Source: Cytophagales bacterium (GTDB lineage: Bacteria; Bacteroidota; Bacteroidia; Cytophagales; MED-G16). Taken from it: a DNA stretch of 64,000 bases. The translations under genes and the position numbers were made by a program. The stretch's first letter is position 1. Each line of letters starts with the position of its first letter. The notes beneath the pieces are model-generated. The model saw nothing but the letters and a program-made list of their open reading frames with translations. It did not search any database and had not been told where the DNA came from. The stretch lies in assembly GCA_045568775.1 (NCBI GenBank), contig JBJLAJ010000004.1, positions 4,750 through 68,749 of the forward strand. Reading direction: 5' to 3'. Shown in pieces: positions 58,646 to 63,358 of the stretch.

Positions 58646-58744
58646 TTTTCTTACAATGCTTGCAGTTTTTTCTTCTACAATATAAATAATTCTGACAGTT
58701 ATTTGACAGTTATTGATTAATCAATCTTTTAAGGCCTTTAAGGT
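58646..58744 (+). repeat. Dispersed direct repeat, copy 1 (99 bp)
   Basis: Identical to 61407-61505. Confidence 0.97.
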
Positions 58745-58773
58745 ACGGGGTTGAATGATCCCCTAGGGTAAGA
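58738..58773. repeat. Short hairpin element, copy a
   Basis: TTAAGGTACGGGGTTGAATGATCCCCTAGGGTAAGA, similar to 59588-59626. Confidence 0.75.
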
Positions 58774-58775
58774 GA

Positions 58776-59551
58776 TTATAGATCCTTTAGTATTAATATT
58801 TTTAGTTCAGAAACTTCATTTAAGAAGTTATTTAAAAATAATTGGACAAAATATCTATGTCTAAATTTTAAATTTAGATAGTTTCTTGCATAATCTTTTT
58901 CTAGGATAACCTTAATTTCATTTTTAGTTTCTTTATAATAATCCTCGCTTCCATTAAATCTGTTTTTTAATTCAGATTGTGTTGTATTAAGCATATTTAC
59001 GATATACTTATCTTCATCTATCATAAGTCTTTCCTTAAAACTTAATTGAAGATCAATTTCAACTTCAGAATTTTTAATTAATTGTTCTTTACTTAAATAA
59101 ACTATGGAGTTAATTTTTCTTTTAATTAAGTCATTTTTAATAATACTAAATGATCCATCTGAGGTAACCATCTCAAGAGTTGCGATAGGAGGATGAAATT
59201 CTCTAAAATCTAAAAATAAGTTATGAAAAGAAGCATCATATCTATTTTGTGAAAATTCTTTTGCAGTTGAATCTATATTCACATTATCCCAATTTTTAAT
59301 TAGATAATCCATCCATATACTATCAGAACTTAAAGTTTTTTTCCTATCGTTTATATACGTTTCTATCTGTTCAATATCAGATAAAATAGAGTTTAGAATT
59401 ACTTTCTCTTTTTCTGACTCCTGATTTTGTATCTGAATATCATTTATCCAATAAGAAATAGTAATACCCCCCCCCCCCCCCCCCCCCCCCCCCCCCCCCT
59501 AATACAATTACAACAAATTCTAATGAGTATTTAATAGCAAATTTTTTTCAT
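58776..59551 (-). CDS. Membrane-anchored hypothetical protein (DUF6090-like N-terminus); 5' end frameshifted and interrupted by a poly-G run
   Basis: Reconstructed as MKKFAIKYSLEFVVIVLGITISYWIND...EKEKVILNSILSDI, joining ORF 58776-59312. Confidence 0.6.
59467..59499. repeat. 33-nt poly-C homopolymer
   Basis: Directly visible. Confidence 0.95.
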
Positions 59552-59587
59552 AATAGTAATCTATAGATATAAATAAACATAATCAAC

Positions 59588-59626
59588 TTAAGATACGGGG
59601 TTGAAACAATCCCCTTGATAGTAAGA
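59588..59626. repeat. Short hairpin element, copy b
   Basis: TTAAGATACGGGGTTGAAACAATCCCCTTGATAGTAAGA. Confidence 0.75.
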
Positions 59627-59630
59627 ATAT

Positions 59631-60179
59631 TTATTCTCCTATTGGTGAATGAGGAATTAGTGCAAACAATTTTGAAGCTACCATCAATTTTTTTCAAAAT
59701 ATATGATGCTTCTCTCTCTTTCTCACCCATTATATTACCATCTTTTAGAAAACCTTGTAAAATTCATTTCAATAATAATAATATCATTGTCTTCTTTATA
59801 ATGCTCAAAACTATTTGTGACTGAATATCCATAGTTATTTTCCTCTAATTGATTAAAAGTATTTTTAAGAAAAGAAAGTACTTGATCCTGTGTTGAAAGT
59901 ACAGTAATTTCATCTTGATTGTATAATGTGAAAGGTAATCCATAAATTTCTTCAGTTATCTTATTAAAGTCTTGATCACTCCAATATTTTACATAAGTAC
60001 TGAATAGTTGATTTACCAATGGATTTATCAGTTTTGACTCATTTGCTTTTTCAAGCCTATTTTCTGCCTTAACCCTTTGTGTTTTAAGTTCTTCTTCAAC
60101 GGAATTTTGATGATAATCAGATATTCCAGTAATTGCTATTATTACAATTAAGGAAGCAATAATTATATTTTTTTTTCAT
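59631..60179 (-). CDS. NTF2/SnoaL-like hypothetical protein with N-terminal anchor (frameshifted)
   Basis: ATG 60179 with an A9 slip leads into ORF 59735-60019; the C-terminus (REASYILKKIDGSFKIV...) continues in other frames to a stop at 59631. Confidence 0.55.
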
Positions 60180-60195
60180 TCTTCAATATAAAATT

Positions 60196-60682
60196 TCATT
60201 GAGGCATATTTGCAACATATTCTGTTGGATCAAAAATAAAAGCTCCTTCACTTACTTTATCTCCATCCCATTTAAAACCAAGAATGTACAGGATTGCTAA
60301 TTGTTACTCCTGTGGACTTACTTGTTGCTTTCCAAGTAAACCAATAGTTTGAATAAACATTACCATCCTCAAAAGTCGTGGTAGTAGTAGCTCTTTCAAT
60401 ATTTTCAACATTTTCATAAAATTCTTTATCTCTTGAAAATTCTTCAATCATTTGAGCAGGTGAAACATCATTGCTGTTGATATGAATTATAGCATCTTCA
60501 GTAAATAAGTCAATTTGAGTTTCTAAATTATTTTCTAAATATGCTTTTGTGAAGTTATCCATAGCTTGTGATTTAGAATCATTCATTTCAACAATTCCCT
60601 CTTGGAATTCTGATTTATTACTTGTGTTATCTGCACAAGAAAATATTGTTATTGATAATATTATTAATAAAAAGTTTTTCAT
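60196..60682 (-). CDS. NTF2/SnoaL-like lipoprotein (C-terminal frameshift)
   Basis: Lipobox IFSC; NPVHSWF continues after a slip as KWDGDKVSEGAFIFDPTEYVANMPQ*. Confidence 0.65.
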
Positions 60683-60776
60683 TTTGTTGTATTTAAAATT
60701 TAGATGGTTACTTAATTATTACAATCTACAACTATCCAAGAAAAATTCAAAAGGGTTATGTTTGACCTTTTATTAT

Positions 60777-61395: not shown

Positions 61396-61406
61396 ACCTC
61401 AACTTA

Positions 61407-61509
61407 TTTTCTTACAATGCTTGCAGTTTTTTCTTCTACAATATAAATAATTCTGACAGTTATTTGACAGTTATTGATTAATCAATCTTTTAAGGCCTTT
61501 AAGGTTGGG
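61407..61509 (+). repeat. Dispersed direct repeat, copy 2
   Basis: 61407-61505 is identical to copy 1; 61433-61509 is identical to copy 3. Confidence 0.97.
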
Positions 61510-61570
61510 TGATTTATTATATTTGTTTTGTGGAAAAAAATTAAATTAAGTTTAACTATATAATAATTAT

Positions 61571-61948
61571 ATGGATTCAATAAATAAAAACTGGAAATCA
61601 ATATTTCTTTTCTCAACTATTTTTTTCATACTAGGATATCTAGTAGGAAATAACTTTAAAGGACATAAACCTATGGGTGGGTTTTTTGTAAGTGAAGACA
61701 TTAAGGAAATGGATCATATAGGAAATATTTTAAAGGGTGATGGAAAAAATGAACACATCGTTATCAAAAAGTTTAAGAATGGAGAGGGTACAATAGATGT
61801 AGATGTTAACATAGATAGTGAAATGGATATTGACAAGATAATTAAAGAAGCAGAAGGTGATCCAAATATGACCATTAAAATTGATAGTACTTCAAAGGAT
61901 GGTAAAAAGCAAATTAAAGTTGAAGTTAGAAAAGAACATAAAAATTAG
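61571..61948 (+). CDS. Hypothetical protein with N-terminal TM helix
   Basis: 125-aa ORF; TATATTTG promoter-like motif at 61518-61525. Confidence 0.65.
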   Translation: MDSINKNWKSIFLFSTIFFILGYLVGNNFKGHKPMGGFFVSEDIKEMDHIGNILKGDGKNEHIVIKKFKNGEGTIDVDVNIDSEMDIDKIIKEAEGDPNMTIKIDSTSKDGKKQIKVEVRKEHKN

Positions 61949-61964
61949 ATATTAAGTTCCATAA

Positions 61965-63059
61965 ATGAATAATAATTTTGAAATTGATTTAAACTGGGGC
62001 AGCAGACAAGAACTTATATTAGTGATATTATTAATTTTTATTTCAGGATTGATTGCCAAAGTTCCCTTTTTATTTAATATTGACCCAGAATTATTTTATC
62101 CTCGTAATATAGGCACAATTGTTTTTCCAACACTAATTTCATATCTGTCTTGGCGATATCAAATAACTCTTTTCAATTGGGGAAAATTTATAATAATTTC
62201 TTCAATACCGATTGTATTTATTAATTTATTTCCAGGTGGTGATAACAGTGACACTTTTATTCTTTCGTCTACACATTCATTATTTCTTTTGCTTTCTATT
62301 TATAGTCTAGTCTATGTGGGTGAATTTTGGAAAAATAATCATAAAAGAATAAAATTTCTTCACTACTGTGGAGATTTAATAATTATGAGCGGTTTATTAT
62401 TGATATCAGGAGGTTTATTTACTGCAATTACCATTGGTTTATTTGAGATGATTGGATATAATATAGAAGATTTTTATTTTGAAAACATTGCGATTTGGGG
62501 AATTCCTGCAATTCCAATTCTAGCCTCTTACCTAATTTTTAATAATAAAAACTTAGTTAGTAATATATCTCCAGTAATTGCAAAAATTTTTACTCCATTA
62601 GTGTTTATAATTTTATTAATTTTTTCGATTACTACAATTTTTTCTGACAAAAATTTTTTTGCAGATAGAGAATTATTGTTATTGTTTAACATAATTATAA
62701 TTGCAGTATTAGCTTTAATATTATTTTCATTAAGCCATATAAATAAAAGAAATAAATTTCAATTTATTATTCTACTTTCTCTTTCATTGATTTGTATAGT
62801 TGATAATTTAATTGTTCTTTATGCTATAAGTTCACGTCTTTTTGAGTTTGGAATAACACCAAATAGACTTGCAGTGACAGGTTTAAATATGCTTGTTTTT
62901 TTTCACCTGATTATTATTTCAAGACAATTATTTTCATCAGTAATAAAAGAAGTTAATATTAAAAACATATTTAATAGTATTGGAGGGTTTTTACCTATTT
63001 ACGTTTTTTGGACATTAATAATCGTTTTTTTATTTCCTATAATCTTTAACTTTAAATAA
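61965..63059 (+). CDS. Polytopic membrane protein (DUF4153-like)
   Basis: About 10 TM helices, FYPRN, ISPVIAKIFTPL, FGITPNRLAV.G.N. Confidence 0.7.
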   Translation: MNNNFEIDLNWGSRQELILVILLIFISGLIAKVPFLFNIDPELFYPRNIGTIVFPTLISYLSWRYQITLFNWGKFIIISSIPIVFINLFPGGDNSDTFILSSTHSLFLLLSIYSLVYVGEFWKNNHKRIKFLHYCGDLIIMSGLLLISGGLFTAITIGLFEMIGYNIEDFYFENIAIWGIPAIPILASYLIFNNKNLVSNISPVIAKIFTPLVFIILLIFSITTIFSDKNFFADRELLLLFNIIIIAVLALILFSLSHINKRNKFQFIILLSLSLICIVDNLIVLYAISSRLFEFGITPNRLAVTGLNMLVFFHLIIISRQLFSSVIKEVNIKNIFNSIGGFLPIYVFWTLIIVFLFPIIFNFK

Positions 63060-63074
63060 TTAATATAAATTTTA

Positions 63075-63272
63075 ATGATAAAAATATTTCTATCAATATT
63101 AAAGAAAGTTTTTTTTTACTTTTTACTTTTCACTGGTATAATTCTATCAACATCTCATCTCGGTGACAATTTTATGGGAATTAGTGATGAGGAAGGATAT
63201 CTTTTGACTATTGGATTATGTTCTTTAGTTGCTTTCATTTTAGAATATTTGATTCCAAAACTTAAATCTTAA
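63075..63272 (+). CDS. Small two-TM hypothetical protein
   Basis: 65-aa ORF co-oriented with the two preceding genes. Confidence 0.5.
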   Translation: MIKIFLSILKKVFFYFLLFTGIILSTSHLGDNFMGISDEEGYLLTIGLCSLVAFILEYLIPKLKS

Positions 63273-63281
63273 TTACTTCCC

Positions 63282-63358
63282 CTTCTACAATATAAATAAT
63301 TCTGACAGTTATTTGACAGTTATTGATTAATCAATCTTTTAAGGCCTTTAAGGTTGGG
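63282..63358 (+). repeat. Dispersed direct repeat, copy 3 (77 bp, 5'-truncated)
   Basis: Identical to 61433-61509. Confidence 0.97.

Follow-up and report, generated by a model that had tools for sequence, protein, structure and literature searches.

Gene modules and repeat copies beside tRNA-His

Toward the right end of the window, the whole stretch of 64,000 nucleotides analysed here, lies a tRNA-His(GTG) gene (58569-58643, + strand) that is the only one of its kind in the assembly and the putative integration target. It is preceded by a dihydroorotase/amidohydrolase gene with an Amidohydro_1 match (57182-58519, + strand), which we take to be pyrC or a relative of it, the name also chosen in a previous reading of the sequence alone. 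This gene stands before intact tRNA-His in relatives and forms the conserved left anchor of a gene island, and conserved outer genes bound the tRNA-His locus across relatives.

A 99-bp element follows the tRNA and, as drawn, begins 2-3 nt past it because the tRNA gene ends at 58643. Copies 1 (58646-58744) and 2 (61407-61505) are identical over 99 bp, whereas a third, at 63282-63354, corresponds to element positions 27-99 only. All three lie on the + strand, and the repeat far exceeds what chance would give (E 3e-46 for a genome of 1.72 Mb). By sequence comparison, copy 1 occupies 58644-58744 when counted as an arm from the tRNA end (allele A), copy 2 begins at arm position 3 and lacks a tRNA fragment, and the truncated copy 3 extends to 63358, with its last four bases agreeing with copy 2 only.

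The spacers between the copies measure 2662 bp and 1776 bp. Spacer 1 (58745-61406) holds four minus-strand genes recognized from open reading frames and domain matches, namely an unknown gene and NTF2-like (DUF6841), lipoprotein-like and AIM24-like genes. Boundary motifs lie inside it, one at 59595 and one at 60722, and its sub-blocks reappear in different contexts at four other loci (L069, L104, L110 and L085). Spacer 2 (61506-63281) carries three plus-strand genes encoding 125, 364 and 65 aa, none with a Pfam match, behind a TAnnTTTG box at 61518-61525; the same module is present in L069, an independent metagenome contig. To the right of copy 3 is the 3′ part of a minus-strand gene for a T9SS-type secreted protein (63390-64000; TSP_3, DUF3472 and DUF5077 matches), which in L069 is a single 700-aa frame. 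The units in the window and its continuation contain no integrase gene, and no transfer gene was noticed in them.

The T9SS module continues past the window as far as C4:70291, its end marked by a promoter-like motif together with a 3′ fragment of tRNA-His and a fourth copy of the element. This copy, 1.5 kb past the window on the same contig (C4:70291-70437), joins tRNA-His positions 29-75 to the arm at 97%. The sequence-only reading had described three copies in one orientation separated by unrelated modules, and both observations hold. Its remark that there is no clear tRNA 3′ duplication does not survive this fourth copy, which comes into view when one reads farther along the contig. The whole assembly has four copies, every one in the single tRNA-His island, a distribution unlike the genome-wide scatter of terminal-inverted-repeat, MITE or REP-type sequences.

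It is highly improbable that the array is an artefact of alternative strain alleles joined at an identical repeat. The contig does break off within the island, and indel errors are present in the assembly: three of four spacer 1 genes are interrupted by single-base indels absent from contigs of three public runs. Also, no examined record spans two copies, these records being broken contigs and 37 raw reads from ~4% of one run. However, a 4.15-kb block (61407-65557) that covers the positions of copies 2 and 3 is present in L069 at 97.7%, and among 79 loci assembled separately 39 have at least two copies. Moreover, the copies vary both in extent and in sequence, and contigs of three runs support the unique junctions. 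The exact module order is that of the assembly and is provisional for the source genome.

The repeat and its probable integrase

The element had been called structured. Its predicted RNA fold is no better than those of shuffled sequences (z = +1.9), and the bottom-strand DNA gives z = +0.2, with 117 of 200 shuffles folding equally well, so it is not attC-like, as the sequence-only reading had itself maintained. An Rfam search returned no family at the gathering score except tRNA. On the fold z-scores and the Rfam result, a structured RNA or an attC site was rejected. A new, integron-like site is not supported: the repeat is unstructured and built like an ordinary attachment arm for an integrase, and the 3′ part of the tRNA is duplicated just beyond the window.

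The element is most likely the attL-side (P′) arm of a tyrosine integrase, with arm binding predicted from the sequence. A tandem 11-bp direct repeat in copy 1 (58693-58714) would provide two arm-type sites for the integrase, at a distance of 92 bp from a 7-bp overlap (58601-58607). Putative core-type sites surround this overlap within the anticodon stem-loop (58596-58612), as judged from where junctions start. Farther along the arm, a 12-bp palindrome with a T-run (58713-58731) was found by junction classing to be a recurrent module boundary, and this stretch contains a candidate match to the IHF consensus. The idea that the palindrome serves this integrase as another core was set aside: the CTGA-7-TCAG core is spaced differently, and only five of the 60 distinct right flanks among 90 classed junctions have more than one left flank. 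It is therefore kept as a recurrent boundary.

A tyrosine integrase linked to the island is encoded in three of 24 genomes of the family (G002, G003 and G006) and in L096/L108, in accord with the earlier expectation that the recombinase lies outside the window. An intact copy was not found in the source assembly (G000), whose contig stops inside the island. At all five integrase-type junctions, the 11-bp tandem repeat pair is also present at the start of the integrase gene, 102-124 bp left of the overlap. The allele of the post-tRNA arm (A or B) agrees with the repeat at the integrase start. The integrase itself has two forms that differ in about the first 28 residues and are 92% identical overall. 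A 61% identical integrase at tRNA-Asn (G245) has its own repeat at both element ends, and inspection by eye reveals an 11-12 bp tandem repeat at the start, beside a tRNA or tRNA piece, in five of five other related integrases.

Residues R208, K236, R299 and H322 are invariant in all seven aligned integrases and the tyrosine is present in six, while the first catalytic His position reads Y or S. The catalytic set is complete in the G002 copy, whose element carries type I restriction and GmrSD genes as cargo and has no visible module for replication or packaging. A structural model based on seven sequences aligns full length to lambda Int (1z1b) and has three N-terminal strands plus a helix, the N-terminal pLDDT being only about 50-69; a single-sequence fold with pLDDT 41 was set aside. 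A Pfam search of the integrase found no arm-binding domain.

Relics of the integrase 3′ end are found at six further loci and at two places in the source genome, and integrase pieces are present in all four runs that contain the island. The genome also has its own 383-aa integrase-like gene, which is unlikely to supply the enzyme in trans because the first catalytic Arg is absent in eight of eight aligned family members. A phage or satellite origin is not favoured: viral contigs gave no match to the arm and none to the integrase; phage records yielded short tRNA matches only.

Junctions and module variation among relatives

Comparison with relatives reveals 26 different first modules among 37 loci, and 63 of 513 family pairs are found in both orders, although the loci are related and include some duplicates, so that these and the following counts overstate independent events. 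Variable content at a fixed locus, with content and order changing at repeat boundaries, is what the sequence-only reading had anticipated in proposing tRNA-anchored accretion, and a fixed module order was not seen among the relatives, where shared modules stand in different orders. Units are mostly 0.5-4 kb, and no conjugation or relaxase gene was noticed in them. In eight other loci, one HTH module has the palindrome at one end and the tRNA core at the other; seven more share one or both of these ends. Arm alleles A and B are mixed in 19 of 39 multi-copy loci. The left junction of copy 2 recurs in L085, there with arm allele B, and its right flank recurs in L069, there after a tRNA fragment; L069 also has the left junction of copy 3, but with another right half.

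The 83 loci examined contain 46 junctions with a tRNA 3′ fragment, oriented as the intact tRNA is. All 41 integrase-free examples begin at tRNA position 27-29, in the anticodon stem, against at least six classes of flank, and in 40 of them the left arm pair is absent within 200 nt. By contrast with this exact edge, arm-only matches begin at scattered positions from 1 to 70 (13 of 67 at 69-70). The earlier proposal that each integration regenerates the site fits copies that follow a tRNA fragment and fails for copies 2 and 3, whose left edges are scattered like those of other arm-only copies.

Promoter-like motifs are common in junction flanks: in 21 of 46 contexts one stands 4-5 nt from an ATG, compared with 331 of 5000 randomly chosen positions (within 20 nt). 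A motif shared among flanks is represented in spacer 1 by a minus-strand sequence (60722-60755; TTTG, 19 nt, TAGATTG) whose function is putatively that of a promoter. The shared-promoter class accounts for roughly 17 of 44 junctions; in L036 its motif adjoins the integrase stop codon. At the distal end of the arm, a TAnnTTTG box is followed by a start codon 4 nt on in four of six cases. The minus-strand motif is also found at other variable regions of the source genome, where the arm is lacking.

These observations could be accommodated if the repeat were a promoter or terminator unit copied among flexible genes and exchanged by homologous or microhomology recombination alone, its link to an integrase being historical and now inactive. 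The distal box, the occurrence of the minus-strand motif apart from the arm and the scattered edges of arm-only copies all fit such a unit. Nevertheless, we regard it as very unlikely, since relatives have an intact integrase with matching arm alleles and pieces of it are present in the same runs, the tRNA fragments begin exactly at the anticodon stem, and the element has no terminator-like fold.

A different possibility, doubtful but less so, is that an integrase acting in trans recombines the tRNA core, together with the right arm, with cryptic CTGA sites that adjoin promoters. It is similarly questionable whether arbitrary genes would then leave as small circles and re-enter tRNA-His, making the modules purpose-made cassettes and not decayed elements. 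The uniform left edge of the 41 integrase-free junctions, 40 of them without a left arm, would not be expected from decay, as a start at position 27-29 in every case is more exact than random decay predicts. Capture of this kind also agrees with the variety of flank classes, with modules of one to four genes whose ends are sharp and conserved, as in the HTH module, and with the excess of promoter-like motifs near an ATG. Yet the shared-promoter class may be a deletion product inherited many times, because its motif adjoins the integrase stop codon in L036, and the remaining flanks may belong to arms of integrases not yet sampled. Circles were not seen in the contigs and short reads examined, and a joint that “goes back” around a 130-aa module in three runs equally fits another module order. 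We would give only modest weight to the broader notion of a tRNA-anchored analogue of integron cassette genesis in streamlined marine Bacteroidota, with self-expressing, gene-sized cassettes that a rare integrase of the population would move in trans, leaderless promoters and two co-circulating arm and arm-binding specificities.

A model for growth of the island

The repeat probably represents the attL-side arm of an element whose tyrosine integrase targets the tRNA-His anticodon loop, and the array is an additive island, likely assembled by successive insertions, worn down by deletions and reshuffled at the shared repeats. As its anatomy suggests, such an element would insert into tRNA-His by an attachment site that runs from the integrase start through one arm pair and, about 100-125 bp on, the anticodon core to the tRNA 3′ half and another arm pair. 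Insertion would rebuild the tRNA and leave, in order, tRNA, arm, cargo, core, tRNA fragment and older arm. Comparison among loci shows that this has taken place many times, so that units stack and the first unit varies between strains.

Relics suggest that the integrase and left arm would then have gone from most units, and loss of the tRNA fragment from some would leave the arm alone, as in copies 2 and 3. The mosaics among loci are consistent with homologous recombination at repeats of 50-150 bp and at promoter flanks, which may swap and reorder modules, while rare integrase-bearing elements in the population would continue to add units. No excision, excised circle or empty tRNA-His site was seen in the broken contigs (which end at repeats) and short reads available. 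Other results that weigh against the model are the exact anticodon-stem edge of junctions that mostly have no left arm pair, the grouping of 13 arm-only starts at position 69-70, the absence of an intact integrase from the source assembly and the lack of an arm-binding domain in the Pfam search.

Comparison with known systems

The island is an additive tRNA island built by tandem accretion, resembling CIMEs and tycheposons. The process, growth of a tRNA gene island, is known, and the novelty lies in unusually small integrase-free modules. Distinctive here are gene-sized modules without an integrase, anticodon-stem starts without a left arm, scattered edges of arm-only copies and promoter-like flanks. 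Targeted literature searches, with most subscription journals and supplements outside their scope, returned no account of this locus.

In the parts of the published accounts available to us, additive flexible genomic islands at tRNAs are described for Ca. Actinomarinales (PMC7771536), Ca. Methylopumilus (fGI-2; PMC10872708) and Alteromonas (PMC5217437). They share with the present locus a fixed tRNA anchor, a streamlined aquatic genome, strain-variable cassettes, partial tRNA repeats and mostly hypothetical genes. The repeat in those portions is a tRNA fragment, whereas here it is mainly a 100-bp element-side arm, often without tRNA sequence, and unlike in those same portions the arm can be assigned to a specific integrase and to alleles.

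In the sections accessible, ICE/IME and CIME elements accreting in tandem (PMC5704250) and the Dehalococcoides ssrA islands (PMC3146451) likewise involve units stacked at one target, many integrase-free, with chimeric att sites between them. CIMEs as presented there retain attL and attR, whereas 40 of 41 integrase-free right ends here lack the left arm pair and copies 2 and 3 lack a core. The tycheposons of Prochlorococcus, as partly consulted (10.1101/2020.12.28.424599), have rare integrase carriers at island tRNAs and push older units inward, leaving partial tRNAs and integrase fragments, as here; they belong to a different phylum, and the G002 element differs in its lack of a visible replication or packaging module.

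Integrons resemble the locus in having small gene modules in an array of changeable order. However, the present system lacks a folded attC-like site, its IntI score falls short of the cut-off (TIGR02249, 33.6 bits versus 265), its target is a tRNA, and promoter-like motifs move along with its modules. The geometry of the tRNA-His element matches that of mv4 attP, described in the available text as a heterobivalent tyrosine integrase site (10.1101/2023.11.06.565760): as in lambda and mv4, there are a 7-bp overlap, inverted core sites and an 11-bp direct-repeat arm pair about 100 bp to each side, although arm binding here is predicted and the integrase is only 13-21% identical to solved structures.

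The locus bears on the exchange of single flexible genes in streamlined marine bacteria with few mobile elements. It offers a target site, a catalytically intact-looking integrase, two natural arm alleles, each matched to its own integrase N-terminus, and dozens of naturally occurring junctions. If one-armed capture occurs, it would explain the origin of integrase-free cassettes; if not, the locus is a well-resolved case of a known process. Anticodon-centred sites are a common integration class according to the part of PMC4383910 consulted, and island finders as outlined there, which require an integrase and at least 2 kb, would overlook most units of this island.

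Repeat copies and assembly

Directly behind tRNA-His (58569-58643) lies the first of two identical 99-bp copies of the repeat, here called the arm (58646-58744 and 61407-61505), followed by a truncated third copy (63282-63354), all on the plus strand as the sequence-only reading had described. The contig search that it had proposed recovered a fourth copy past the window (C4:70291-70437). This copy includes tRNA positions 29-75, which overturns the earlier statement that there is no clear duplication of the tRNA 3′ end. The assembly has no further full copy; beyond these, the strongest arm-like match spans 42 bp (E = 5e-5). 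The element had also been called structured, a description we abandon: it folds no better than shuffled sequences, and comparison with Rfam gave no family at or above the gathering score.

The assembly comprises 1.72 Mb in 11 contigs (the window being C4:4750-68749). Contig C4 terminates within the island, and C1 begins with genes that form the far end of the island in relatives. Contigs from three public runs cover 30 of 30 island bins, none of them bridging two arm copies, and the reading of the array as an artefact is a poorer fit and most improbable. About a dozen single-base indels of the assembly are missing from these contigs; therefore the gene breaks in the window at a long C run and at several indels of one base (59469-59500, 60272, 61181-61189 and 63529) probably reflect assembly errors.

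A variable island behind tRNA-His

Genome records bearing the arm are labelled uncultured Marinoscillum sp., Flammeovirgaceae or Bacteroidota, and the arm is present in 11 of the 25 family genomes, many of these incomplete. The comparison drew on 20 loci in genomes and 63 on metagenome contigs (83 in all), with duplicates or near-duplicates retained (L059/L098, L096/L108 and L064/L102), so that locus counts are not independent events.

On one side the island is bounded by pyrC, a dihydroorotase-like gene, and tRNA-His, on the other by a conserved gene block; what lies in between varies. Module content and order differ between strains, in keeping with the cassette array envisaged earlier. There are 26 different first modules among the 37 loci in which the tRNA is intact and followed by 250 nt or more of sequence, and both orders occur for 63 of the 513 gene-family pairs present in at least two loci (families clustered at 40% identity; linked genes inflate this count). 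Modules reappear elsewhere as whole units. For example, a three-gene HTH module, bounded on the left by a 12-bp palindrome with a T-run (58713-58731 in the window) and on the right by the tRNA anticodon stem-loop, leads the array in some strains and takes a later place in others, the genome under study among them. Likewise, window 61407-65557 is present in locus L069 at 97.7%, with the HTH module before this block there and after it here.

A 20-bp hairpin-like motif (58745-58764 and 59595-59614) brackets the first gene and also forms a junction in L069 and L081. Many cassette genes share similar signal-peptide starts.

The integrase and its putative arm

A PF00589 search of the genome returned three genes. 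Two, of about 300 aa, are XerC/D-like by size and ubiquity. The third (L053:892-2043, near 39172 of contig C6) is degenerate and lies in comparable gene surroundings throughout the family; all eight aligned members lack the first catalytic Arg, six of them the second as well, and the gene may encode a domesticated, inactive recombinase.

Three relatives carry an additional tyrosine integrase inside the tRNA-His island. The gene is read in the direction of the tRNA; a tandem 11-bp repeat overlaps its start, 102-124 bp to the left of a tRNA fragment. This repeat occurs in two forms, which are the two forms of the arm behind the tRNA, and these pair with two different integrase N-termini on a protein that is otherwise 92% identical (seen at two ends of A type and three of B type, of which one keeps just the first codons). 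Homologues at E 1e-30 or better occur in 6 of 301 genomes of the order. Five of five non-family homologues have a tandem repeat at the integrase start, as judged by eye; a far-end copy was found among them only for genome G245, where a complete 4-kb element at tRNA-Asn carries its own repeat, once where the integrase gene begins and again about 100 nt past the intact tRNA. The modeled integrase has an N-terminal segment of three strands plus a helix and aligns over its full length to lambda Int, although Pfam reports no arm-binding domain. The attP of phage mv4, as laid out in an excerpted account (10.1101/2023.11.06.565760), has two pairs of 11-bp direct-repeat arm sites, the same layout as here. 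Because the repeat forms match the integrase starts, and given the two-ended repeat of G245, the mv4 layout and the lambda Int alignment, we infer that the 99-bp element is the attL-side arm of this integrase.

A separate island (L153; G013:C20:160-187 and 11062-11089) has a different integrase and, at each end, a 12-bp tandem repeat of its own adjoining a tRNA 3′ fragment; the anatomy is the same at another tRNA. At the integrase-proximal ends of L034 (about 5630-5700) and L045 (about 1340-1412), the tRNA 5′ half is retained, split by a short hairpin insert.

Junctions and relics

Forty-six tRNA-fragment junctions have 200 nt of left flank. Five are of the integrase type, and all five have the left arm pair. 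The remaining 41 represent at least six flank classes; every one begins at tRNA position 27-29, and 40 have no such pair. BLAST defined 67 arm matches that do not immediately follow a tRNA piece, the five integrase-proximal repeats included; their left edges are scattered over arm positions 1-70, 13 of them at 69-70. The left junction of copy 2 recurs identically in L085 with the other arm allele, and that of copy 3 in L069 with another right half, so exchange takes place within the arm. Of the 39 loci with more than one copy, 19 combine both alleles.

Short remnants of the integrase 3′ end survive in six further loci; the genome under study has them at C3:416855 and C7:278. Integrase pieces were found in all four runs containing its island. 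In L036 the common minus-strand promoter motif immediately adjoins the integrase stop codon, which suggests that many module ends are deletion products of integrase-bearing elements.

On this sequence evidence, the array is probably best read as ordinary tandem accretion followed by loss and reshuffling. Elements would have accreted in tandem at the anticodon loop of tRNA-His, the integrase and left arm would then have been lost from units, and modules would have been reshuffled through recombination between shared repeats. No excision or integration event was seen in contigs or short reads. The precision of the armless junctions speaks most strongly against accretion and decay and keeps a one-armed capture model in play, unlikely as we judge it to be.

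Promoter-like motifs at the flanks

In 21 of 46 distinct contexts, a TTTG-19 nt-TAGATTG motif is followed by ATG at 4-5 nt (within 20 nt for 331 of 5000 random control positions); among the other contexts are GTG starts, interrupted frames and the ends of contigs. On the plus side, a TAnnTTTG box precedes a start by 4 nt in four of six cases. Excerpts of a Flavobacterium study map the box at -12 to -5 (PMC9723704), and with that placement transcripts from the flank motifs are predicted to be leaderless. Such promoters would account for a repeat that can lie ahead of genes, behind them or between them, whichever way they point. A promoter repeat exchanged purely by recombination is a poorer fit to the array than accretion and decay, and quite improbable.

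Leaderless mRNAs are also hinted at across the genome (window 60722 and 61518 included): over 1287 ORFs, the spacing between a -7 box and the first ATG has its mode at 4 nt (24 cases). Other variable regions of this genome, behind tRNA-Ala and tRNA-Met (L164, C7:1-3570; the C3 end; C9 near 74500) have the same promoter motif, integrase 3′-end relics and island-gene paralogues without the arm.

Comparison with known systems

The integron-like logic proposed earlier is not supported, the array having failed the integron tests. The array shows those features of an additive tRNA island that were tested, and, as far as the excerpted sources describe them, additive flexible islands (PMC7771536, PMC10872708, PMC5217437), CIME accretion (PMC5704250, PMC3146451) and tycheposon-fed islands (10.1101/2020.12.28.424599) work alike. 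Strict CIMEs differ in that the two-ended att test was negative for this array. Targeted literature searches found no description of the tRNA-His locus. The locus is real and largely explained by known biology, with an anatomy sharper than usually reported.

Among other repeats, 115 bp downstream of tmRNA recurs at the C8 start with 95% identity (C11:1960-2325 and C8:277-391), possibly as another island-end repeat. The window also holds low-complexity coding repeats (48330-48700, 50173-50676 and 33258-33423), exemplified by the EAPAAEAPKEEKKE tail on gene 50238-50858.
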